Shown here: in pieces, positions 2,441 to 18,079 of the stretch
Layout: every line of letters starts with the position of its first letter
Position numbering within the stretch: position 1 is the stretch's first letter
NCBI RefSeq assembly: GCF_000354175.2
Contig: NC_022359.1
Coordinates: forward strand, 1,080,001-1,112,000
Length of the DNA: 32,000 bases
DNA from: Vibrio alginolyticus NBRC 15630 = ATCC 17749
GTDB taxonomy: Bacteria > Pseudomonadota > Gammaproteobacteria > Enterobacterales > Vibrionaceae
Direction of reading: 5' to 3'
Position numbers and translations under genes: made by a program
Notes under the pieces: generated by a model
What the model saw: the letters and a program-made list of their open reading frames with translations, nothing else
Told to the model about the DNA's origin: nothing
Database searches by the model: none

Positions 2441-3412
2441 TTGATGAGGCAATTCAGCGCAATCGCACTAGCTGTTGTAACACTCATTTTGAGCCAAACA
2501 ACAACCGCAAGAAACGCGAAGATGTTAGGTGATATCTCCCTAGTTCAGCCCATACAGGGTGATCCTAATGTGGATATTAAGCTAGCGAGAATTGGCTGGC
2601 ATCTCTTCCGCGATCCTCAATTATCGTCAAATGGTAATGTCAGCTGTGCGACATGCCACAATCTGCAAACCAATGGCGCTGAAAATACACCTGTCTCTAC
2701 GGGGGTGAAAGGTGATGGAATTAGAAATTCTATAACAGTGTTTAATGCAGCGTTAAATTATCGTTTTTTATGGGATGGTACGGAAAACACCTTGATGGCT
2801 CAGATTGATGGTCCAATCCATAATCCAATGGAAATGGACTCAAACTGGCAAACAATAGAGCAATATGTAAAAGAGAGTGAACATTATCAAGCTCTATTTA
2901 ATCGTGACGGTGAATTGCCGATTAACGTTCATAATATCAAGTCCGCTATTGTGGAGTTTGTTGAAGGGCTGCAGACGCCTGGCGCACCATTCGATGCTTA
3001 CTTATTGGGTTACACGCATGTACTGAGTGAACAGCAAATCAGAGGTTGGAAAACATTTCAGACTTCAGGTTGTGTGCAGTGTCATCAGGGCAAAAATATC
3101 GGCGGAGCGATGATCCAAAGGTTCGCCTATTTCAAGGATAAGCCAGTAGTAGAGGACTCGGGCAGGCAACTCGTTACGATAGAAGATGAAGAGCGATTCT
3201 ATTTTAGAGTAGCCAGTTTACGCAATGTCGCGCTAACGAGTCCTTATTTTCATAATGGGCAAGTCGATAAGTTATCCGACGCGATACAAATCATGGCTAA
3301 AACCCAGCTCGGTATAACGATGAACGATGAGAATGTCGCGGACATTGAAGCATTCTTGCAGTCGTTGACAGCACCTAGACCCATAATTTTAGAGGTGTTG
3401 GAAAATGAATAA
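2441..3412 (+). CDS. Periplasmic di-haem cytochrome c peroxidase (CCP/MauG) family protein
   Basis: 323 aa with an N-terminal signal peptide (AIALAVVTLILSQTTTA). It has two CxxCH haem-c motifs: CATCH at nt 2645-2659 and CVQCH at nt 3071-3085. Family-typical segments GKNIGG and FRVASLRNVALTSPYFHNGQV..L..AIQIMAKTQLG are present. Confidence 0.85.
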   Translation: MMRQFSAIALAVVTLILSQTTTARNAKMLGDISLVQPIQGDPNVDIKLARIGWHLFRDPQLSSNGNVSCATCHNLQTNGAENTPVSTGVKGDGIRNSITVFNAALNYRFLWDGTENTLMAQIDGPIHNPMEMDSNWQTIEQYVKESEHYQALFNRDGELPINVHNIKSAIVEFVEGLQTPGAPFDAYLLGYTHVLSEQQIRGWKTFQTSGCVQCHQGKNIGGAMIQRFAYFKDKPVVEDSGRQLVTIEDEERFYFRVASLRNVALTSPYFHNGQVDKLSDAIQIMAKTQLGITMNDENVADIEAFLQSLTAPRPIILEVLENE

Positions 3413-5762
3413 ATTCAAACTGATCAACTTTTGCTTTTTTATTGGGATACTGACGTGCTGCACACTGGCGTATATGTCGTATATGAATTCAAAAAACGCT
3501 CAAGAATTTCATGCAGGGCTAATGAATATCGGACATGAGTTGATTGAAGAGCGTGATGTTATCGTGAACCGATATGCCGTTGAAGATAGGAAAAACTATG
3601 AGTTAACAACATCTTTAGTAGAGATAGAAATCGCAGCACAGGCACTGTTGGAATCATCAAAGGCATCAGTTTGGTTTCCCGTGACACCCAATCGTATAAA
3701 AGTTAGGGATACGCTTGAACAGTTTAAGGAGCGAGTGCTTCAAACAACGTTGAAGCTTGATATGTTAATTGGTGTTCAGGTAGAAAATCGGTATGCATTA
3801 CTCATGTTGTTCAATTTATATCAGCAAGAGGTTTCTACCGAGAGCGGTCAATCATTGGGTGGCAGTCGTTATTTTGAATTTCTCAACCAGTTGCTTCTAA
3901 CACAAACTGAAGTTGAGAGTGAAAAAGAAGCGAACTTCCTTAAACGGCTTCAAACGAGTGATAAAAGAATTGAATTGCTGACGAATGAACTGCTTGATCA
4001 CACTTATATTGAGTTTGTCGAAAGCTCAGAGCATCGGTTACTCAATATTGCTCAAAGTGAGGCGCGTTTTACGTGGTTGTTTGTATTTATCGCGGTGATG
4101 TTTCTAGTTAGCGCGTTTGTTTATCAGTCACATCACCGAATGCATAACTTAAAACAGTTGAATCTTGAAATTGAAGAGGCGAGAAACAAAGCCGAGCGAG
4201 CGGCAAAAGCGAAATCAAATTTTCTTGCTGCAATGAGTCACGAACTAAGAACGCCGATGAATGGCGTACTAGGGCTTTCTCAAATGATTGCAGAAGAGAC
4301 CAAAGAGCCGACGACGAAAGAGCACATTAGGGTTATTCTTGACTCTGGCCAGCATCTGATGACTATCCTCAACGATATTTTGGATTTTTCTAAAGTTGAA
4401 GAAAACAAACTGGAATTTGAGCAAGCTAAGTTTAAGCTCGATCAAGTGCTTTCTCCGGTGTGTAGCGCAATAAAACCACTTGTTGATGAAAAAAATATCG
4501 AGCTAATCTTGGAAAACGAGGTTTCTGAATATACTGAATTTACTGGGGATTGTGCGCGTTTACGACAGATCTTATTTAATCTCGCCGGTAACGCGGTGAA
4601 GTTTACCAATGAAGGGCATGTGCTGGTTAGAACCGAGTTAGATGAATCGAATCAGTTGTTGGTCATGTGCGTGAGCGACACCGGTATTGGTATTGCGCCA
4701 GACAAGCACGAGCATATTTTTAACTCGTTTGAGCAAGCAGACTCATCAACGACTCGAAGGTTCGGCGGAACAGGGCTTGGGTTAGCCATCGTCAAAAAAC
4801 TAACCGATTTGATGGGTGGCCATATTACTCTGAAGAGTATAGAAGGCGTTGGAAGTCAATTTATCGTTGAGTTGCCGATTCCTTGGGTAGAATCTGCTCC
4901 GAAAAAGCAGCAAGAAGCACCGAAACCTCGCGCAAAATCACACCATTTAAAGATACTACTTGCTGATGATAATCGTGTGAATGCCATTGTGGCAAAAGGG
5001 TTTTGCGAAAAGCTCGGGCATGAAGTGGATGTTGCAGAAAATGGATTAATCGCGGTTAAAAAGGCGAAAGAGAACGAGTACGACCTGATCTTGATGGACA
5101 ACCATATGCCCGAGATGAATGGCGTTGAGGCGACACGCGTTATCCGACAAGAGTTAGGTATTAAGACATTACTCTTTGCGTACACGGCAGACGTATTTCG
5201 TGAAGCTCACGATAGCTTTATTGAAGCAGGAGCAGACCATGTGCTGACAAAACCGCTACAGCATGAGAGCTTTTCAGACGCTCTCAAACAGTTTGCCGCC
5301 AGACTCGAACCGAAACAGAATCCGCCACTAACGAGTGACAGCAATGTGCTTCAATTGCAACGTAAGCCAATCGAGAACTTAAGGTTAACAGAGGAAGAAC
5401 TCTCCCGTTCAGGCATGTTTACTTCTTTACGAGATGAGCCAGAAGCGCTCGACGAGTTGCTAAAAAGCATTATTGTCGATTTTGAGACTTCTGTTGATGA
5501 ACTTATTGAATACTTTATGGCTGAAGACTTTGCTTCATTAGAGCTGACGTTGCACAAAACGAAAGGGATGGCACTGAACCTAAGTTTACCTATTTTGGCG
5601 AGCCAAACGGAGGCCCTGGAAACTCAACTTAAAGCCAACCAAAGTCCCGAGATTGAGCAGTTGCAGATGCTGATCAATCGGTTACAGGTCAACATCCATC
5701 AGTCTCATAGACTTTTGGATGATATCCAGAAGAACAATGCCGATCCTCAACAGATTTTATAG
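3405..5762 (+). CDS. Hybrid sensor histidine kinase (2 TM + periplasmic helical domain, HisKA, HATPase_c, REC, C-terminal HPt)
   Basis: 785 aa. TM1 is FKLINFCFFIGILTCCTLAYMSYM and TM2 is FTWLFVFIAVMFLVSAFVYQ, flanking about 190 aa of periplasmic sequence. The H-box is FLAAMSHELRTPMNGVLG. N/G boxes are NLAGNAVKFT and DTGIGI..GGTGLGLAIV. The receiver is KILLADDN...DLILMDNHMPEMNG. The HPt motif is HKTKGMALNLS. Its ATG overlaps the upstream stop (ATGAATAA, 3405-3412). Confidence 0.9.
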   Translation: MNKFKLINFCFFIGILTCCTLAYMSYMNSKNAQEFHAGLMNIGHELIEERDVIVNRYAVEDRKNYELTTSLVEIEIAAQALLESSKASVWFPVTPNRIKVRDTLEQFKERVLQTTLKLDMLIGVQVENRYALLMLFNLYQQEVSTESGQSLGGSRYFEFLNQLLLTQTEVESEKEANFLKRLQTSDKRIELLTNELLDHTYIEFVESSEHRLLNIAQSEARFTWLFVFIAVMFLVSAFVYQSHHRMHNLKQLNLEIEEARNKAERAAKAKSNFLAAMSHELRTPMNGVLGLSQMIAEETKEPTTKEHIRVILDSGQHLMTILNDILDFSKVEENKLEFEQAKFKLDQVLSPVCSAIKPLVDEKNIELILENEVSEYTEFTGDCARLRQILFNLAGNAVKFTNEGHVLVRTELDESNQLLVMCVSDTGIGIAPDKHEHIFNSFEQADSSTTRRFGGTGLGLAIVKKLTDLMGGHITLKSIEGVGSQFIVELPIPWVESAPKKQQEAPKPRAKSHHLKILLADDNRVNAIVAKGFCEKLGHEVDVAENGLIAVKKAKENEYDLILMDNHMPEMNGVEATRVIRQELGIKTLLFAYTADVFREAHDSFIEAGADHVLTKPLQHESFSDALKQFAARLEPKQNPPLTSDSNVLQLQRKPIENLRLTEEELSRSGMFTSLRDEPEALDELLKSIIVDFETSVDELIEYFMAEDFASLELTLHKTKGMALNLSLPILASQTEALETQLKANQSPEIEQLQMLINRLQVNIHQSHRLLDDIQKNNADPQQIL

Positions 5763-5861
5763 TCCCTGTGAGTGCGATGCTTTCCTTAACTCATTTTGTT
5801 GTGGTTTACTGTGGCAAGGACGGATAGTGTTGATTCGTCGTCGGAAAATCAGGGAGTTAGA

Positions 5862-6329
5862 ATGAGTAAGCATTCCGCTTTAATCAAATGGCATCGTAAA
5901 GCTGGCGAAGAGTTTAGTGATAATAAGTATAGTCGGGCACACATTTGGCAATTTGATGGAGGGTTGCAAGTCCCAGCATCTCCATCTCCCCACGTAGTAC
6001 CATTACCACTATCCGTAGAAGAAAACGTTGATCCAGAAGAAGCGTTTGTCGCGGCACTTTCTAGTTGTCATATGCTCGTTTTCCTGTCTATTGCAGCAAA
6101 GCGACGTTATGTTGTGGACAGTTACTTCGATGAAGCGGTAGGGGAGCTTGAAAAAGGCGAAAACGGAAAAGAGTGGGTATCAAAGGTAACGTTAAACCCT
6201 AAGATAACATTTTCAGGTGAAAAACAACCGACACCATCTCAATTAGAAAAACTGCACCACATGGCCCATGAGAATTGCTTTATCGCCAACTCCGTTAAAA
6301 CAGAAGTGACAACGCTTATTGCGAATTAA
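5862..6329 (+). CDS. OsmC/Ohr-family thiol peroxidase-like protein
   Basis: I prefer the ATG at 5862, which is preceded by GGGAG 5 nt upstream, over the TTG at 5796 in the ORF track. The product is about 155 aa and carries the two family-typical cysteines (ALSSCHMLVF and HENCFIANS). Size and pattern match the OsmC superfamily. Confidence 0.78.
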   Translation: MSKHSALIKWHRKAGEEFSDNKYSRAHIWQFDGGLQVPASPSPHVVPLPLSVEENVDPEEAFVAALSSCHMLVFLSIAAKRRYVVDSYFDEAVGELEKGENGKEWVSKVTLNPKITFSGEKQPTPSQLEKLHHMAHENCFIANSVKTEVTTLIAN

Positions 6330-6375
6330 GTGAAGCTCTTTATCAAAAGCGCGGCCTATTGCGGAGTTATATTAA

Positions 6376-6396
6376 GCCAGCAGTCATCCTGCTGGC
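6376..6396. terminator. Hairpin between convergent genes (OsmC-like + / gdhA -), a possible bidirectional terminator
   Basis: GCCAGCAG-tcatc-CTGCTGGC is a perfect 8-bp GC-rich stem in the 75-bp gap between two stop codons. The flanking U-tracts are weak. Confidence 0.5.
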
Positions 6397-6404
6397 TCGT
6401 TCAT

Positions 6405-7757
6405 CTAGACGACACCTTGCTCAATCATTGCATCAGCGACTTTTCTAAAGCCTGCAATGTTGGCGCCTAAAACTAAATTTCCAGGTTGGCCAAACTCTTT
6501 ACTGGTTTCGTTTGCATTGATGAAAATATTTTTCATGATGGTTTGCAACTGACTATCCACTTGTTCAAACGTCCAGTTTTGCATGCTGGCGTTTTGCGCC
6601 ATTTCAAGTTGACTGGTTGCAACGCCGCCTGCATTGGCTGCTTTGGCAGGCCCATAAGCTATGTCTGAGTCCACGATAATATTGGCAGCATCACGGGTGG
6701 TTGGCATGTTCGCCCCTTCACTAATCAAAATACATCCGTTTTCGATAAGAGCCAGTGCGTCGTCTGACGTTAGTTCATTTTGAGTCGCACAAGGGAAGGC
6801 AGCATCAGCCTGATATCGCCAAACAGCATGTCCTTCATTAGGATAGTCGCCCTCTGGTGTGTATTCTGCTTCAGGGTAAGTTTCTAAATATTCTTCTAAG
6901 CTTGCTCTTTTCACTTCTTTCAGTTGTTTTAGGAGCTTAAGATCAATACCGTGCTCATGATAGATCGTACCTCGAGAGTCGCTGCATGTAACTGGCGTTG
7001 CTCCCATATGGTACAGTTTTTCAATGGCGTAGATAGCCACGTTGCCAGCACCAGAAACGAGACAAGTTTTCCCTTTCAATGAATCGTTGCGGTCGTTGAG
7101 CATGCATTCTGCAAAATAGACGGCGCCATATCCTGTCGCTTCTTTTCTGGCGAGTGAGCCACCCCAAAGAAGACTCTTGCCTGTAAGCACACCTTCGTAG
7201 CGGCCCGTCAATCGTTTGTATTGACCAAACATATAGCCAATTTCGCGCGCCCCGACACCGATATCGCCTGCGGGCACATCGGTGGTAGGACCGATGTGAC
7301 GGTACAACTCGTTCATAAATGATTGGCAAAATCGCATGATCTCGCCGTCGGATTTTCCTTTAGGATCGAAGTTTGAACCGCCTTTGCCGCCACCGATAGG
7401 AAGGCCAGTCAGTGCGTTTTTAAAGATTTGCTCAAAGCCGAGAAATTTTATGATGCTCGCATTGACTGAGTGATGGAATCTCAATCCTCCTTTGTACGGC
7501 CCCAAAGCAGAGTTGAATTCAACTCGATAACCTTTGTTTACTTGTACATTTCCAGCATCATCAACCCAAGGAACTCGAAACATGATTTGACGTTCTGGCT
7601 CGACGATCCTCTGGATAATCGCTTGTTCCTTATATTTATTATTGCCTTCTATTACCGGCGCGAGAGAAGTTAATACTTCTTCTACCGCTTGGTAAAATTC
7701 TTTTTGCGCAGGGCTACTGTGTTGCAACGCAACAATAGTATCGTGTATGTATGACAT
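6405..7757 (-). CDS. gdhA: NADP-specific glutamate dehydrogenase
   Basis: 450 aa. It contains the Glu/Leu/Phe/Val dehydrogenase active-site region (LPIGGGKGGSNFDPKGKSDGEIMRFCQSFM) and the dinucleotide-binding GAGNVA motif. Length and N-terminal region match enterobacterial GdhA. Confidence 0.93.
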   Translation of the reverse strand: MSYIHDTIVALQHSSPAQKEFYQAVEEVLTSLAPVIEGNNKYKEQAIIQRIVEPERQIMFRVPWVDDAGNVQVNKGYRVEFNSALGPYKGGLRFHHSVNASIIKFLGFEQIFKNALTGLPIGGGKGGSNFDPKGKSDGEIMRFCQSFMNELYRHIGPTTDVPAGDIGVGAREIGYMFGQYKRLTGRYEGVLTGKSLLWGGSLARKEATGYGAVYFAECMLNDRNDSLKGKTCLVSGAGNVAIYAIEKLYHMGATPVTCSDSRGTIYHEHGIDLKLLKQLKEVKRASLEEYLETYPEAEYTPEGDYPNEGHAVWRYQADAAFPCATQNELTSDDALALIENGCILISEGANMPTTRDAANIIVDSDIAYGPAKAANAGGVATSQLEMAQNASMQNWTFEQVDSQLQTIMKNIFINANETSKEFGQPGNLVLGANIAGFRKVADAMIEQGVV

Positions 7758-13497: not shown

Positions 13498-14139
13498 TTA
13501 TGCGCTTGCGTAAATAACGCTGCCGCCTTTTATGGTGTCAATGATCTCGCGAGACAACTTCTCTGGCAAAGCAGGGCAACCCCAACTGCGTCCGAGGTAT
13601 CCATTCTTCTTGATGAAGGAAGGGTTTGCGTAATCGGCACCGTGCACGACAATGTAACGCTCGCGAGCTTTGTCGTTTAATCCAGAGCTTAGCCCATCTA
13701 ATCGAAGTGAATAGCCATTTGAGCCGTAGTAAGTGGTATCAGTCAAAAAAGTGCCCAATGATGTTTTTCGCGAGTTCACGACATTTGAAAACTGTGTCGC
13801 TGTTTTCTTTCCGCTGTTCACGCCGTGAGAAACATACGTATTGTAAATTAGCTTCTTTTTATCTAAATCAACCACATAAAAACGCTTTTCAGTTGATGGT
13901 TTACTATAGTCGATGATCGTTAGTACCGACTTCTTTCTATCGGGTGTCTTCTGATAAGCGATGTAAGCGTCACTGAACAACTTAAAGTCTACTATGCCAT
14001 CTAGCTTGGCTTGTTTAAACACATGTTCAACTTGCTTTGGTCGTAAATGATCCCTGGGTTCGTTATCTGATTGTTTTGCAAAAGCAAAAGGTGAGACAGA
14101 CAACAGCGCACATGTAAATAATATAATTAACTTTTTCAT
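13498..14139 (-). CDS. L,D-transpeptidase catalytic-domain family protein (YkuD_2-like), secreted
   Basis: 213 aa with a signal peptide (MKKLIILFTCALLSVSPFAFA). The C-terminal catalytic-type segment is VVHGADYANPSFIKKNGYLGRSWGCPAL, a His ... SxGC motif. Confidence 0.8.
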   Translation of the reverse strand: MKKLIILFTCALLSVSPFAFAKQSDNEPRDHLRPKQVEHVFKQAKLDGIVDFKLFSDAYIAYQKTPDRKKSVLTIIDYSKPSTEKRFYVVDLDKKKLIYNTYVSHGVNSGKKTATQFSNVVNSRKTSLGTFLTDTTYYGSNGYSLRLDGLSSGLNDKARERYIVVHGADYANPSFIKKNGYLGRSWGCPALPEKLSREIIDTIKGGSVIYASA

Positions 14140-14922
14140 CTTGGCTAAATAAAACTCTATGGTGTTACAAATTTACCGATTGCTTCATGCACTCGTTAAA
14201 ACAACATGCACATCAATATAATTCTATTCCCAATGTTTCTTATTGCACGCTTAGGTGCTTGATATTGGGTTGACGATAATTTCTCGAGTTAAAAACTAAC
14301 TGTTTGAAACTTATATAAAATATGAAGTTTAACGATGGTTTCTATAAACTTCGGCGTAAATAATATCTGATATATGTAATTAATAAAACTGTGTTTAAGG
14401 ATATTTGTGAAGTTGCCAATTTATAAAAACGGCGTTTTATTTTTCGTACTTTAGAAACTCTTTTTATTTCAATGTGTTTTCTTTTTCTACGCTTTATCCA
14501 ATACCTCAAAAGTTTGTGATTTAACTCGTAACAAATCGTAACGCCGAATCGTTATGTGTATAAGTGCATTTATAATGTATGAATAAACAACAGGGTGGTA
14601 AGAAAAGGCAGTAAAACAGCGGTGAATCGGTTGTTTTTAATTCACGATTGACAAAGCTAAGTCTAAGTCGTACAAAAATTGAACTTGTGAATGTATCGTT
14701 TAAGTGAGAGTGATGAGCTCGACAAAAGTGAAGTGATGCGTGCTATTGTTTATTCTCTAATTTATTCGATTACATAAGGAAGGGTACATAGTAAAAATTG
14801 AAAAAATAATTCTATCGTGTGGATTAAAATATATAAATAATAAAACTTAGAAATTAAAAGATAAGAACGCCAGATATTGATTCATTAAATTTTTGAACAT
14901 GAAAGTAAACTCTATCTATTAT

Positions 14923-14947
14923 GTTTGGTTTGGTTTGGTTTGGTTTG
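14923..14947. repeat. Pentanucleotide microsatellite (GTTTG)x5
   Basis: Reads directly as gtttg gtttg gtttg gtttg gtttg, followed by gtg. It lies 56-80 nt upstream of the ATG at 15003. Confidence 0.95.
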
Positions 14948-15002
14948 GTGTGAAAGCGATCGTCTCATTAAGAAAAGCGCTCAAATTTATTTAAGGACGG
15001 TT

Positions 15003-15578
15003 ATGACAGCATTTAATAAAGTGTTTATTGTCACTCCCAATGTTAATGATTTTGCAATGTTGCAAGAGTCGCCATTGGAAATGTCTCTTCAAGTAACGGC
15101 AAGCAAACCTATCCAACTCTATGGAGAGTCTGTTAAAGCCAGTTGGAAAAGTATTGATATTGAATGGTTAGACGTTATGGGTGAAAAGCCATTGCCCAGG
15201 CCTGATATTGCAGCATGGGGATCTTTTACTCTTGCTGTATCCGCTTCTATTGCGGATAAGCTCGATGTGTTGAGCGAGAATGTCGAATTTTTACCATTAA
15301 ATCTACAAGGAAAGCCTTGGCGAGCATTAAACATTGTCACTCAAATTGATGCCATTGATACCTCTGCTACCGAGTATAATCTTCGTCATGATAAGCTAAG
15401 TCGTGCTAGACCGTTTAAGAAACTCGTTTTGAATAGAGAAGTCGTTAATGAATCTGACTTGTTCAGAGTAAAAGGTGCTGGGCTCAGAACGTTTTGCACG
15501 GACAAAAAAGGTGGCTTGTACGATAGCGTCAAAGCGCTGAATTTGACCGGTTTGGATTTCAAGGAAGTGCTGGTTTAA
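15003..15578 (+). CDS. Hypothetical protein, possibly Imm11/DUF1629-like immunity-type protein
   Basis: I prefer ATG 15003, which has an AAGGA RBS 6 nt upstream, over the TTG at 14925 that lies inside the microsatellite. The product is 191 aa, cytoplasmic, with no TM segment. The overall pattern (..PDIAAWGSFTLAVSASIADKL..NVEFLPLNL..WRALNIVTQIDAIDTSATEY..KKLVLNREVV..DLFRVKG..TFCTD..KALNLTGLDFKEV) resembles Imm11 proteins as I remember them. This assignment is unverified. Confidence 0.55.
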   Translation: MTAFNKVFIVTPNVNDFAMLQESPLEMSLQVTASKPIQLYGESVKASWKSIDIEWLDVMGEKPLPRPDIAAWGSFTLAVSASIADKLDVLSENVEFLPLNLQGKPWRALNIVTQIDAIDTSATEYNLRHDKLSRARPFKKLVLNREVVNESDLFRVKGAGLRTFCTDKKGGLYDSVKALNLTGLDFKEVLV

Positions 15579-15718: not shown

Positions 15719-18079
15719 TTATGTTCTTGAAACCCTAATTGAGCTGACCATGGACGCATCAAATCGACGGTCGTCATTTGCCGATTGCCACCACAAGCTC
15801 AATTGTTCTTTAGTCATTGGTTTGCCAAATAAATAGCCTTGCATATAGTCGCAGCGGTATGCGGATAGCCATTCATGCATCATATTGTGTTCAATACCTT
15901 CTGCTGTAACCGTTTTATTTTGGGCATGGCATAGCTCAATGATAGGTTTGATCACATGGCCGTTGTTGGTGTTCATCAATGTAACGAGGAACTCTCGATC
16001 AAATTTGATTTTTTGAACCGGATACTGAACGAGCTGAGTTAACGATGTGTAACCAGAACCAAAGTCATCAATTGCAAGACGGTAGCCACGTTTTGATAGC
16101 TCATCAAGTAGAGCCGTGCCTTGTTGTTCTGCGGCAAAGGTTTCGGTTATTTCTATCTCAATACATTCTGGTTTAACACTGTGCAGTGTCGCTTGTTCAT
16201 GGATGTAGTTTGCCATTTCTATCGAGTTTAGCTCTGCTGATGAAAGATTGACCGAAAGAACAATATCCTTACCGAAAATATTCCTTAATTGATGGTATTC
16301 CGCCGTTGCATTGGCGAAAACCCAGCGGTCAATTTTATCAAATAATCCGGCTTGCTCTGCAATTGGAATAAACTCCTTTGGAGGGATAGGGCCGATACCT
16401 TCGGCTTCCCAGCGCAACAAGACTTCTAACCCCTCAATTTCGTTGCTTCGATTGTTCATATAGGGTTGAAAAACAAGGTGAAATTCTTCCTCTACATTGC
16501 TTTTTCGGAGCGCACGTTCAAGCTGACTTCGTCTTTGAGACTCAATATTGAGAGCGGCTGAATAATAGGCGTATTGATTTTTCCCTGCCCGTTTTGCTTG
16601 ATACATAGCCGCATCGGCACTGGAGAGTAACTTCGCGATGTCAGTACCGTCTTGAGGATATTGTGCAATACCTACGCTTGCCGTAACGGGAAATGAATTA
16701 CTCCAAGATGAACTGAGATTACTAATCGGTTTTAGTAACTCTGATGCAAGCAAATCAGGCAAGCGTTTTACCTCTTGATTTGAGCTCAGCAAAATTGCAA
16801 ATTCGTCACCAGATAACCTGGCGGCAAAGCAGGGGCTGTTGTAATCGTGCGAGAACTTTTGACAAGCATTCTTGATGTGTGATGAGAACACTTTTAATAA
16901 GTTATCTCCCAATTCATGCCCGTATTTATCATTCACGTATTTAAAGTTATCAAGATCGACGTAAACAACCCACAGAAACTGCGAAGGGGAGATAAGTTCA
17001 CGAGTGGCAAGCTCATGAAAACGATGGCGATTGGCGAGTTGCGTCAGGTGATCCGTTTCAGCTAGGCGTTTTGTCTTTTTATAGATGACATTAAGTTCCT
17101 CATACATATCAAAAAAGCGTGCAGAGAGGCGCCCTATTTCATCGTTTGTTTCTAGCTTTTCAATATTGTCACGTTGATTAGATTCAAGTTCGTTCAGCTG
17201 CTTATCAAGGCGAGAAACAGGGCGCAACACATAGCGGTACAACACCAAAATGATTAATGTGATGGTGAAAAACGCCGCTACGCCAAAGGAGAAAGCAAGT
17301 TCTAGCCACACTTTATCGACTTTATTCCACATTAAATATTCGGCAGGAGAAAGCACGGCATAAAAGTGCGGCAGCAGCTCAATGGTTTGAGCGAGAGGAA
17401 TATCAAGATAAATGGGTTTGTCGGCGAAAGTAATCACGCTGTGTGTGTCAAACTCGATGTCATGCTTAATCTCGTTAAAGGCTTCAAGTGATACGGAAAC
17501 TACCACAAAAAACACATTTTTCGAGTCAAAGCTCAAAGGGTGAGTCCCCGTTCTTTTGTCGACGACCTCATATTGAAGAAGAATGCTTTGTCCACTGGAG
17601 TTATAAATAAAGCCAGTGTGACTGAAAGCCTCTCTGTCATTGAAACTTCGTGATATGTACTCTAATACCTTTGGGTCGACCACGCCCGATGATTCGTAAT
17701 ATTTGTTTTCTGTGTAGTAGAGAAGGTTTTGTTTGCCGTCGAGGATCGCCATGCTCGCATCGCCTTTGTAACCATGGCTTAATACTTCAGCGGTCTCGTC
17801 TAATCGATTAAACAAGACTCGCTCACGATAGGGGTTGTTATGATTAACCAAATAGTCTTGTAATACATCACTTTTACTGAGCGTATAGGCATAGCTATTA
17901 AGAAAAATATTCGCTTGTCGAAACTGCCCGGCCAGCTTTTCCATCTGCAACTGAATATAGCTGTCTTCCCGCTTGATGAGCGTCACTTTTTGAATGCTAT
18001 AAATAATATAGCTAGATACTAACGCGCTTAATAAGATCACTGGCGCGACAAGCAAAATGACTCTATTGCTTAACTTCAT
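15719..18079 (-). CDS. Membrane-bound GGDEF-EAL c-di-GMP signalling protein with a periplasmic sensor domain and HAMP-like linker
   Basis: 786 aa. TM1 is VILLVAPVILLSALVSSYIIY, followed by a periplasmic region of about 230 aa and then TM2 AFSFGVAAFFTITLIILVLY. The GGDEF domain (DHLTQLANR...RLSGDEFAILL) has an SGDEF signature. The EAL domain has QPY...GLEVLLRW, EIEITE, DDFGSGYTSL, KFDREF, AEGIE and QGYLFGKP. Confidence 0.9.
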   Translation of the reverse strand: MKLSNRVILLVAPVILLSALVSSYIIYSIQKVTLIKREDSYIQLQMEKLAGQFRQANIFLNSYAYTLSKSDVLQDYLVNHNNPYRERVLFNRLDETAEVLSHGYKGDASMAILDGKQNLLYYTENKYYESSGVVDPKVLEYISRSFNDREAFSHTGFIYNSSGQSILLQYEVVDKRTGTHPLSFDSKNVFFVVVSVSLEAFNEIKHDIEFDTHSVITFADKPIYLDIPLAQTIELLPHFYAVLSPAEYLMWNKVDKVWLELAFSFGVAAFFTITLIILVLYRYVLRPVSRLDKQLNELESNQRDNIEKLETNDEIGRLSARFFDMYEELNVIYKKTKRLAETDHLTQLANRHRFHELATRELISPSQFLWVVYVDLDNFKYVNDKYGHELGDNLLKVFSSHIKNACQKFSHDYNSPCFAARLSGDEFAILLSSNQEVKRLPDLLASELLKPISNLSSSWSNSFPVTASVGIAQYPQDGTDIAKLLSSADAAMYQAKRAGKNQYAYYSAALNIESQRRSQLERALRKSNVEEEFHLVFQPYMNNRSNEIEGLEVLLRWEAEGIGPIPPKEFIPIAEQAGLFDKIDRWVFANATAEYHQLRNIFGKDIVLSVNLSSAELNSIEMANYIHEQATLHSVKPECIEIEITETFAAEQQGTALLDELSKRGYRLAIDDFGSGYTSLTQLVQYPVQKIKFDREFLVTLMNTNNGHVIKPIIELCHAQNKTVTAEGIEHNMMHEWLSAYRCDYMQGYLFGKPMTKEQLSLWWQSANDDRRFDASMVSSIRVSRT

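Follow-up and report, generated by a model that had tools for sequence, protein, structure and literature searches.

Several bacterial kinases are controlled by a separately encoded partner protein. In TorT-TorS and LuxP-LuxQ, a periplasmic ligand-binding subunit is encoded apart from a hybrid kinase of HisKA-HATPase-REC(-HPt) architecture, and in H-NOX-HnoK/HqsK, NosP-NahK, and HbpS-SenS-SenR, kinase activity is controlled by a haem protein encoded alongside. In Streptomyces reticuli, for example, the SenS kinase has as its accessory protein HbpS, which binds haem outside the cell and responds to iron/H2O2 redox stress. Here we analyse a window of 32,000 nucleotides from Vibrio alginolyticus NBRC 15630 (contig NC_022359.1, positions 1,080,001 to 1,112,000 of the forward strand; positions below count from the first letter of the window), in which the gene of a secreted di-haem protein of the cytochrome c peroxidase (CCP) family, here called CCP-like, overlaps the gene of a hybrid histidine kinase. 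Comparisons of sequences and gene order across bacteria suggest that the two products probably act as one sensory unit, with the CCP-like protein perceiving the signal.

The described partners differ from the CCP-like protein in several respects. TorT and LuxP are cofactor-less periplasmic binding proteins, and the sensor domains of TorS and LuxQ are unrelated in sequence to that of the window kinase, although the cytoplasmic cores are similar. H-NOX and NosP sense gases in the cytoplasm through a b-type haem, and HbpS is an octamer that binds haem non-covalently and degrades it; none of these three has the c-type di-haem peroxidase fold. The novelty would lie in an accessory partner that is a periplasmic c-type di-haem peroxidase derivative, and in a module that is broad and essentially unstudied. 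The first-pass annotation of the window, made from the letters alone, had stated that no characterised example of such a co-receptor was known. This holds in so far as our search of the literature for a general CCP-DAHL module, or for the Vibrio pair, found nothing beyond one sentence on Campylobacter jejuni DocA, but not for pairs of a haem accessory protein and a kinase, of which HbpS-SenS is a known case.

The C. jejuni gene of a CCP homologue, docA (cj0020c), directly precedes docB (cj0019c), the gene of Tlp10. Colonisation of chicks depends on both genes, and resistance to H2O2 owes nothing to either of the CCPs of this species (PMC3156733). A 2026 paper describes the genes as overlapping and coupled in translation and raises, in a single sentence and as a speculation, a peroxide signal passing from DocA to Tlp10, a chemoreceptor of the DAHL type (PMC13462783). 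The periplasmic domain of Tlp10 is the founder of the DAHL family (PMC9303924, PMC9796306). The likeness to our locus lies in the gene of a CCP homologue upstream of, and overlapping, that of a receptor (of the DAHL type in C. jejuni); the difference lies in the output, which is chemotaxis and not a phosphorelay. DocA is likened here by its published description, not by its sequence: in a search with a profile of CCP-like proteins from Campylobacterota, the best 120 matches were all Sulfurovum-like metagenome proteins and did not include DocA.

The features of the V. alginolyticus pair, with the canonical bacterial CCPs (bCCPs) as reference, are the following.

2444-3412 (+), di-haem CCP-like periplasmic protein, proposed co-sensor (Pfam CCP_MauG, closest solved structures, and fold search)
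2645-2659 (+), first CxxCH (CATCH), of the peroxidatic N-terminal haem (computed from C69)
2705-2707 (+), codon of Val89, at the position of the canonical bCCP distal ligand His71 (alignment with solved enzymes)
3071-3085 (+), second CxxCH (CVQCH), of the electron-transfer haem (computed from C211)
3405-3412 (+), gene overlap of 8 nucleotides, ATGAATAA, with the kinase ATG inside the last CCP-like codons and the TAA stop
3405-5762 (+), orphan unorthodox hybrid histidine kinase, 785 residues (open reading frame and Pfam domains)
3486-4058 (+), periplasmic sensor region of the kinase, residues 28-218, between transmembrane segments 1 (residues 4-27) and 2 (residues 219-243)
4209-4880 (+), HisKA, residues 269-333 (H279), and HATPase_c, residues 382-492 (Pfam)
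4953-5285 (+), receiver domain REC, residues 517-627 (D565) (Pfam)
5454-5687 (+), HPt domain, residues 684-761 (H717) (Pfam)

The CCP-like open reading frame (ORF) can be read from a TTG (2441-3412, +; 323 residues), but the ATG at 2444, with AAGG 10 nucleotides upstream, is the likelier start, and a V. alginolyticus database protein 99% identical to the CCP-like protein has 322 residues. The protein matches Pfam CCP_MauG (E = 1e-42; 146.7 bits, cut-off 25.6). The signal peptide first described for it is visible as a hydrophobic N-terminal segment (residues 5-19), and both CxxCH motifs, the intact SLRNV...PYFHNG region (S259-G273), and a stop codon within the start of the kinase gene were likewise correctly described. 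The closest solved structures are P. aeruginosa CcpA (1eb7, E = 5e-58) and N. europaea CCP (1iqc, E = 5e-57); with these and with S. oneidensis CcpA (3o5c), the protein shares the fold and about 35-41% identity. Similarity with MauG is much weaker, both in sequence (E = 1e-13, residues 45-232 only) and in fold: an AlphaFold2 (AF2) model of medium confidence (predicted local distance difference test, pLDDT, of 69) retrieves bCCPs best (E = 9e-18, TM-score of about 0.63), and MauG with an E of about 1e-9. Because it reaches the cut-off of none of the curated NCBIfam families, the CCP-like protein belongs to no named enzyme family. Membership of MauG/MbnH was rejected on this ground (TIGR03791, MauG, 99 bits with a cut-off of 444; TIGR04039, MbnH, 125 bits with a cut-off of 363) and by a Met at position 285 in place of Tyr.

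The kinase has the architecture of the unorthodox hybrid kinases ArcB, BarA, and TorS. Each of the four domains exceeds its Pfam cut-off and H279, D565, and H717 are intact in canonical motifs, which bears out the full HisKA-HATPase-REC-HPt relay read from the letters. The same is true of the roughly 190 residues lying between two transmembrane segments (about residues 4-27 and 219-243), which are predicted to be all-helical in a low-confidence AF2 model. No response-regulator gene was found within the 32-kb window. The label of TorS-like, also given at first, fits the cytoplasmic core (residues 248-758) and fails for the sensor part. Identity with TorS or LuxQ was rejected, as both equivalog scores fall far under the cut-off and leave the sensor part uncovered (TorS, 379.5 bits, cut-off 676.5, residues 248-758 only; LuxQ, 449.7 bits, cut-off 1200, residues 176-631 only). 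In two Vibrio species, a second large ORF directly follows the CCP-linked kinase (L009:8249-10231 and L013:8399-10306); the products, of 660 and 635 residues, have a C-terminal receiver domain and may be an extra phosphorelay component. The window has no such ORF.

Conservation of the gene pair

Exact-protein look-ups in individual genomes showed that a hybrid kinase gene comes after the CCP-like gene, either overlapping it or at most 6 nucleotides away, in four gammaproteobacterial lineages with differing flanking genes. These are a V. parahaemolyticus-like strain, Enterovibrio norvegicus, Thalassotalea, and Shewanella piezotolerans, the kinase of which has acquired PAS domains. In Sediminitomix (Bacteroidota), the CCP-like gene is followed by a DAHL-SpoIIE gene, and in 'Entotheonella' by a DAHL-HisKA-HATPase gene and then by genes for a response regulator and a PilZ protein. 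A genome scan using family-specific peptide patterns and one genome per species yielded at least 598 relatives, and partners were analysed at the best 80 loci of these plus 8 earlier loci. The best 80 are found in Vibrionaceae, Shewanella, Pseudoalteromonas, Pseudomonas, Fe-oxidising Betaproteobacteria, and Zetaproteobacteria, but also in cyanobacteria, Myxococcota, Spirochaetota, Nitrospira, Planctomycetota, and Campylobacterota. Conservation among close relatives only, which the first-pass annotation had named as a refutation of its idea, is not what we see: the pair is kept, usually with an overlap, far beyond them. In 80 of the 81 loci with a callable partner, the partner ORF starts between -25 and +46 nucleotides from the CCP-like stop; the two genes overlap in 68 of the 81, and in 44 the overlap is of 4 nucleotides.

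The N-termini of the partners (first 300 residues) match Pfam DAHL (PF19443) in 63 of 82 cases. An iterated local hidden Markov model (HMM) raises this to 68 of 82, the DAHL partners added including those of Thalassotalea (1e-13), Pseudoalteromonas (5e-25), and a metagenome-assembled genome of Pseudomonadales (3e-25). The pairs of Vibrio, Enterovibrio, and Shewanella are orthologous, and there is a gradual transition from these to pairs in which the partner can be recognised as DAHL, in Thalassotalea, Pseudoalteromonas, and further groups. Six loci first scored as having no DAHL partner correspond to contig ends or to a wrongly picked ORF, with the DAHL ORF in place. True exceptions are few, such as L041, where the neighbour is an OpuAC gene, and L023, where a partner of 299 residues has a weak DAHL match.

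Outputs are far more variable. Among the 79 partners scanned for output domains, we found HATPase_c in 48, HisKA in 32, PAS in about 30, REC in 25, GGDEF in 17, and EAL in 16; Hpt (11), SpoIIE (7), nucleotide cyclase (3), and MCPsignal (2) are rarer. The partner in one cyanobacterium (L019) is a DAHL-HisKA-HATPase-REC-Hpt protein, that is, it has the architecture of the window kinase. The window pair itself has the defining traits of the module, namely a CCP-like protein lacking the distal His71 encoded directly upstream of a receptor with a helical periplasmic domain of about 200 residues. Because the input unit (the CCP-like protein and the periplasmic domain) stays together while outputs are swapped, we interpret the pair as a sensor module. 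A mere operon of an enzyme and its regulator is hard to reconcile with these data, since a chemoreceptor, a PP2C phosphatase, or a cyclase is no transcriptional regulator of the gene next to it.

The association was also analysed in the reverse direction. A DAHL query of 11 sequences, with the pattern FKSxN[AG][VIL][LV][KNR]N, retrieved 80 metagenome loci. A same-strand CCP-like ORF lies upstream in 71 of the 74 DAHL receptors with at least 400 nucleotides of upstream DNA, a fraction (96%) that is an upper estimate because the query was built from CCP-linked receptors. This ORF typically ends about 78 nucleotides before the start of the DAHL domain, i.e., it abuts the start of the receptor gene. 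One of the three receptors that have no CCP-like gene upstream is a DAHL kinase (L137:1726-4323) preceded by a gene for an HbpS-like haem protein (L137:748-1563; PF03928, E = 5e-10); this single case looks as if the haem partner had been replaced by a non-orthologous one. Taken together, the conserved pair, the swapped outputs, and the reverse association lend strong comparative support to the initial idea of the CCP-like protein as a co-receptor of the kinase.

In Moorena producens 3L (L031, around 4845-6849), a further locus at first scored as having no DAHL partner, both the CCP-like gene and the DAHL gene that follows are split into several frames. This could be joint pseudogene decay, or it could be due to sequencing errors.

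Active-site residues and the nature of the signal

Residues were counted in 87 genome-derived family members aligned with the three solved enzymes (1eb7, 1iqc, and 3o5c). A second sample comprised 61 scoreable metagenomic DAHL-linked CCP-like proteins, for a total of 148 linked proteins. The two haem-binding motifs are nearly invariant among the 87: C69, C72, and H73 are kept in 86, with a gap in the remaining one, and C211, C214, and H215 in all. Met285, the axial ligand of the electron-transfer haem, and the inter-haem Trp W111 are present in 87 of 87, the catalytic Gln Q121 in 85, and the catalytic Glu E131 in 84; the Ca2+-site residues N96, T266, and P268 are also kept. All these residues, from M285 and W111 to the Ca2+ site and the catalytic pair, match positions in the solved enzymes, and in this the family is like the canonical bCCPs, which have the same two CxxCH, His/Met electron-transfer haem, inter-haem Trp, Ca2+ site, and catalytic Gln and Glu.

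Two positions set the family apart. After the second CxxCH, 83 of the 87 members have Q216 (CHQG), where canonical enzymes have Asn (CHNG). At the position of the distal His71 ('S-x-G-H-x-W', the GHxW of canonical enzymes), most of the 87 members have V, I, or F and none has His; His is also absent from all 61 metagenomic homologues. The three solved enzymes all have the distal His, whereas the window protein has Val89 and in this respect departs from bCCPs. A further difference is that the genes of the family are coupled to that of a membrane receptor. Judging from the alignments, the receptor-linked CCP-like proteins are a distinct clade in which the peroxidase residues are in place and the His that closes the resting state has been lost. 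Because of this loss, the ligand-binding (peroxidatic) haem is probably permanently open.

How far does this pattern fit an ordinary enzyme? The CCP-like protein could be a periplasmic peroxidase or respiratory H2O2 reductase that is merely co-expressed with a kinase sensing something else through its own domain. The catalytic residues are all kept, E. coli CCP is a respiratory peroxidase (Khademian and Imlay, as cited in PMC5656828), and direct small-molecule ligands of the Tlp10 DAHL domain have been reported (in work cited in PMC9303924). We hold this explanation to be very improbable, as it accounts neither for the pairing across phyla with non-transcriptional outputs (MCP, PP2C, cyclase, GGDEF/EAL), nor for the CCP-like gene upstream of 96% of the sampled DAHL receptors, nor for an active-site change that is specific and common to all linked CCP-like proteins.

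The presumably open haem raises another alternative, since MauG and MbnH, which are in the same Pfam family, likewise lack a distal His and have a five-coordinate haem that is open; their target is a protein whose gene lies nearby. The CCP-like protein would then use H2O2 or O2 to oxidise periplasmic residues of the receptor, producing for instance a cross-link or a cofactor, either as a one-time maturation or as the signalling event itself, and the receptor domain would be the true sensor. Action of CCP-family enzymes on an adjacently encoded protein is established for MauG/pre-MADH and MbnH/MbnP. However, the second haem has His/Met ligands (M285 in 87 of 87) and not the His/Tyr of MauG. The best NCBIfam similarities of the CCP-like protein are indeed with the MbnH and MauG models, yet both cut-offs are missed, and the protein is nearer to bCCPs in sequence (E = 5e-58 versus 1e-13) as in fold (9e-18 versus 1e-9). 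The DAHL domain offers possible targets, the invariant His186 and the near-invariant Tyr47, but neither that His nor the Tyr-Asp is present in the Vibrio sensors. The tight gene pairing suits an enzyme and its substrate equally well. On balance, a MauG-like role appears distinctly unlikely.

More probably, the two proteins form a sensory unit, in which the secreted di-haem CCP-like protein would be the subunit that perceives the signal, using the machinery with which bCCPs bind and cleave H2O2 and which it retains (peroxidatic haem, Gln121, Glu131, Trp111, Ca2+ site, and His/Met haem). Its conformation would change when peroxide is bound or turned over, or when the haem alters its redox state or its ligands as a consequence. 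Canonical bCCPs undergo large loop rearrangements tied to haem redox or ligation state, for example on reduction of the electron-transfer haem, so that a ready-made conformational switch would be available. The all-helical periplasmic domain of the kinase would dock on the CCP-like protein and read the conformational change, and this readout would switch the balance between kinase and phosphatase activity in the H279 -> D565 -> H717 relay, which would lead to a response regulator whose gene lies elsewhere. Inferred parts of this scheme are that the two proteins are in contact, which signal is sensed, in which direction regulation works, and the stoichiometry. H2O2 is the most likely signal, to judge from the retention of the peroxide-specific catalytic Gln and Glu.

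The same partnership might serve for another signal, such as NO, O2, sulfide, some other small ligand, or, as a measure of available electron donors, the redox state of the cytochrome c pool in the periplasm. Both NO and O2 are possible ligands of a c-type haem in the five-coordinate state, haem partner proteins are well established as gas sensors (H-NOX with HnoK/HqsK, NosP with NahK), and microaerophiles, Fe-oxidisers, and Campylobacterota from vents commonly have the module. The great conformational change of bCCPs when the electron-transfer haem is reduced would suit a redox sensor as well. This is nonetheless unlikely, because conservation of the peroxide-heterolysis residues Gln121 and Glu131 in 84-85 of the 87 proteins is not what one expects of a pure gas or redox sensor.

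In several Vibrio orthologues, of the V. coralliilyticus type (P0029 and relatives), the CCP domain is set apart from the hydrophobic N-terminal segment by a His-rich acidic linker, e.g., HSKHNDAEHDHASEPDHHDSHQHDHQHGE (alignment A1, columns ~75-125). A role as a metal-binding tether is possible; the window protein does not have this linker.

The Vibrio sensor region and the DAHL family

The Vibrio sensor region is fast-evolving. A word-indexed search gave 3 matches, and an exhaustive phmmer search of 1.84 billion representatives found 13, which are too few for a bridge to DAHL to be built from homologues. The iterated DAHL HMM gives the Vibrio sensor an E of no better than 3.7. Profile-profile alignments (hhalign) suggest a relation in two steps: the Vibrio/Enterovibrio-type sensor aligns with the Shewanella-type sensor (94.7% probability, E = 6e-8, 181 columns), and the latter with DAHL (65% probability, E = 6e-5, 176 columns). 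In its receptor, the Vibrio sensor sits where DAHL domains do, is of comparable size, and is predicted to be all-helical. In 150 DAHL domains (L006-L168), the hallmark motifs are YD, ExFKxxNAxLxNS, and an invariant His186, with conservation of 93% for Y47, 99% for D48, 91-93% for F100/K101, 96-97% for N109/S110, and 100% for His186. Vibrio-type sensors have conserved motifs of their own, namely GHE[VL][IL]ExRD, V72...E75, LD118-119, and E209. From these comparisons, the Vibrio sensor is probably a strongly diverged DAHL derivative, a tentative membership that is unproven.

A more general proposal, which we put forward tentatively and rate as possible without calling it probable, is that DAHL-type domains, the diverged Vibrio form included, are primarily docking modules for a dedicated di-haem sensor and not binders of small molecules. 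The two would make up a widespread periplasmic receptor for H2O2 or redox state, which would include Campylobacter DocA-Tlp10 in peroxide taxis. As pure hypothesis, His186 of the receptor might approach or ligate the open CCP-like haem in trans and so complete the vacated haem site.

Several observations weigh against the idea of a common CCP-DAHL sensory unit and against its application to Vibrio. The Vibrio sensor region has no match in Pfam (hmmscan) even at an E of 10, and its direct hhalign comparison with DAHL gives probabilities of 0.2-17%, if in a consistent register. The DAHL hallmarks are mostly missing from Vibrio-type sensors, as D48, FK..NS, and His186 are gone. Because the Vibrio sensor has neither a direct DAHL match nor the hallmarks, what was found for DAHL pairs may not transfer fully to the Vibrio pair. 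Structure prediction adds little here, the AF2 model of kinase residues 1-262, from an alignment of 4 sequences, having a pLDDT of 40 and being unusable. Given the direct ligands that Tlp10 is reported to bind through its DAHL domain (work cited in PMC9303924), DAHL may sense by itself, and DocA has been described as nearer to tri-haem quinol peroxidases than to typical CCPs (PMC5656828). To this must be added that the reverse association is overestimated by the way the query was built, and that retention of the catalytic residues is equally compatible with an ordinary enzyme.

If the docking reading is true, one receptor would feed phosphorelays, cyclic di-GMP (c-di-GMP), cyclic nucleotides, PP2C partner switching, and chemotaxis. 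Known bacterial peroxide sensors such as OxyR, PerR, and OhrR are cytoplasmic, and to our knowledge no dedicated periplasmic H2O2 receptor has been characterised for two-component, c-di-GMP, or chemotaxis pathways. If the module is such a receptor, a function would be available for hundreds of proteins annotated as 'cytochrome c peroxidase' and 'cytochrome B6', and the DAHL domain would gain a partner and a likely signal. The importance of Campylobacter DocA in gut colonisation, without a role in peroxide protection, would also be explained. The idea is directly testable, because the Vibrio pair is present in genetically tractable organisms.

Neighbouring genes

Downstream of the pair lies one more gene to which a role had been given.

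5862-6329 (+), OsmC-like protein, 155 residues, with Cys69 and Cys139 (Pfam OsmC; start most likely the ATG at 5862)

The first-pass annotation had named this an OsmC-type peroxidase and a linked output or companion of the pair. The gap of about 100 nucleotides (the gene starts 99 nucleotides past the kinase stop), the two Cys, and the match with Pfam OsmC (56.2 bits, cut-off 27.5) stand, and no terminator-like site was called between the kinase stop and the OsmC-like start. The name of peroxidase is not established, because the protein misses the NCBIfam cut-offs for the peroxiredoxin subfamilies by far (SACOL1771, 29.9 bits of 166; OsmC, 20.6 of 86; Ohr, 17.8 of 89). The role of linked output finds no support, and OsmC as a part of the module was discarded: in BLAST searches, a homologue follows the CCP-kinase pair in only one close relative, the V. 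parahaemolyticus-like L001, among 87 other loci. The absence of a called terminator and the gap of 99 nucleotides make co-transcription possible in this lineage, and the OsmC-like gene is a lineage-specific neighbour that may here be transcribed with the pair. In Thalassotalea, an unrelated OsmC-family gene (L006:3215-3619) lies 2.4 kb upstream of the CCP-kinase pair; it is not matched by BLAST with the window OsmC, and represents a weak second co-occurrence.

Upstream of the CCP-like gene, the window has just an AT-rich spacer of 495 nucleotides (1946-2440). In the V. parahaemolyticus-like strain, a gene for a 907-residue CHASE4-PAS-GGDEF-EAL protein (L001:2652-5375) lies between nfeD and the CCP-like gene.

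Elsewhere in the window, a low-GC patch (14001-15000; 0.31 versus about 0.43 elsewhere) adjoins an ORF with an Imm11 immunity-protein domain (14925-15578), and the two may be a small horizontally acquired toxin-immunity remnant. Further on, at 15719-18079 (-), a GGDEF-EAL protein of 786 residues is encoded, of which about 340 N-terminal residues have no Pfam match and constitute another sensor region.

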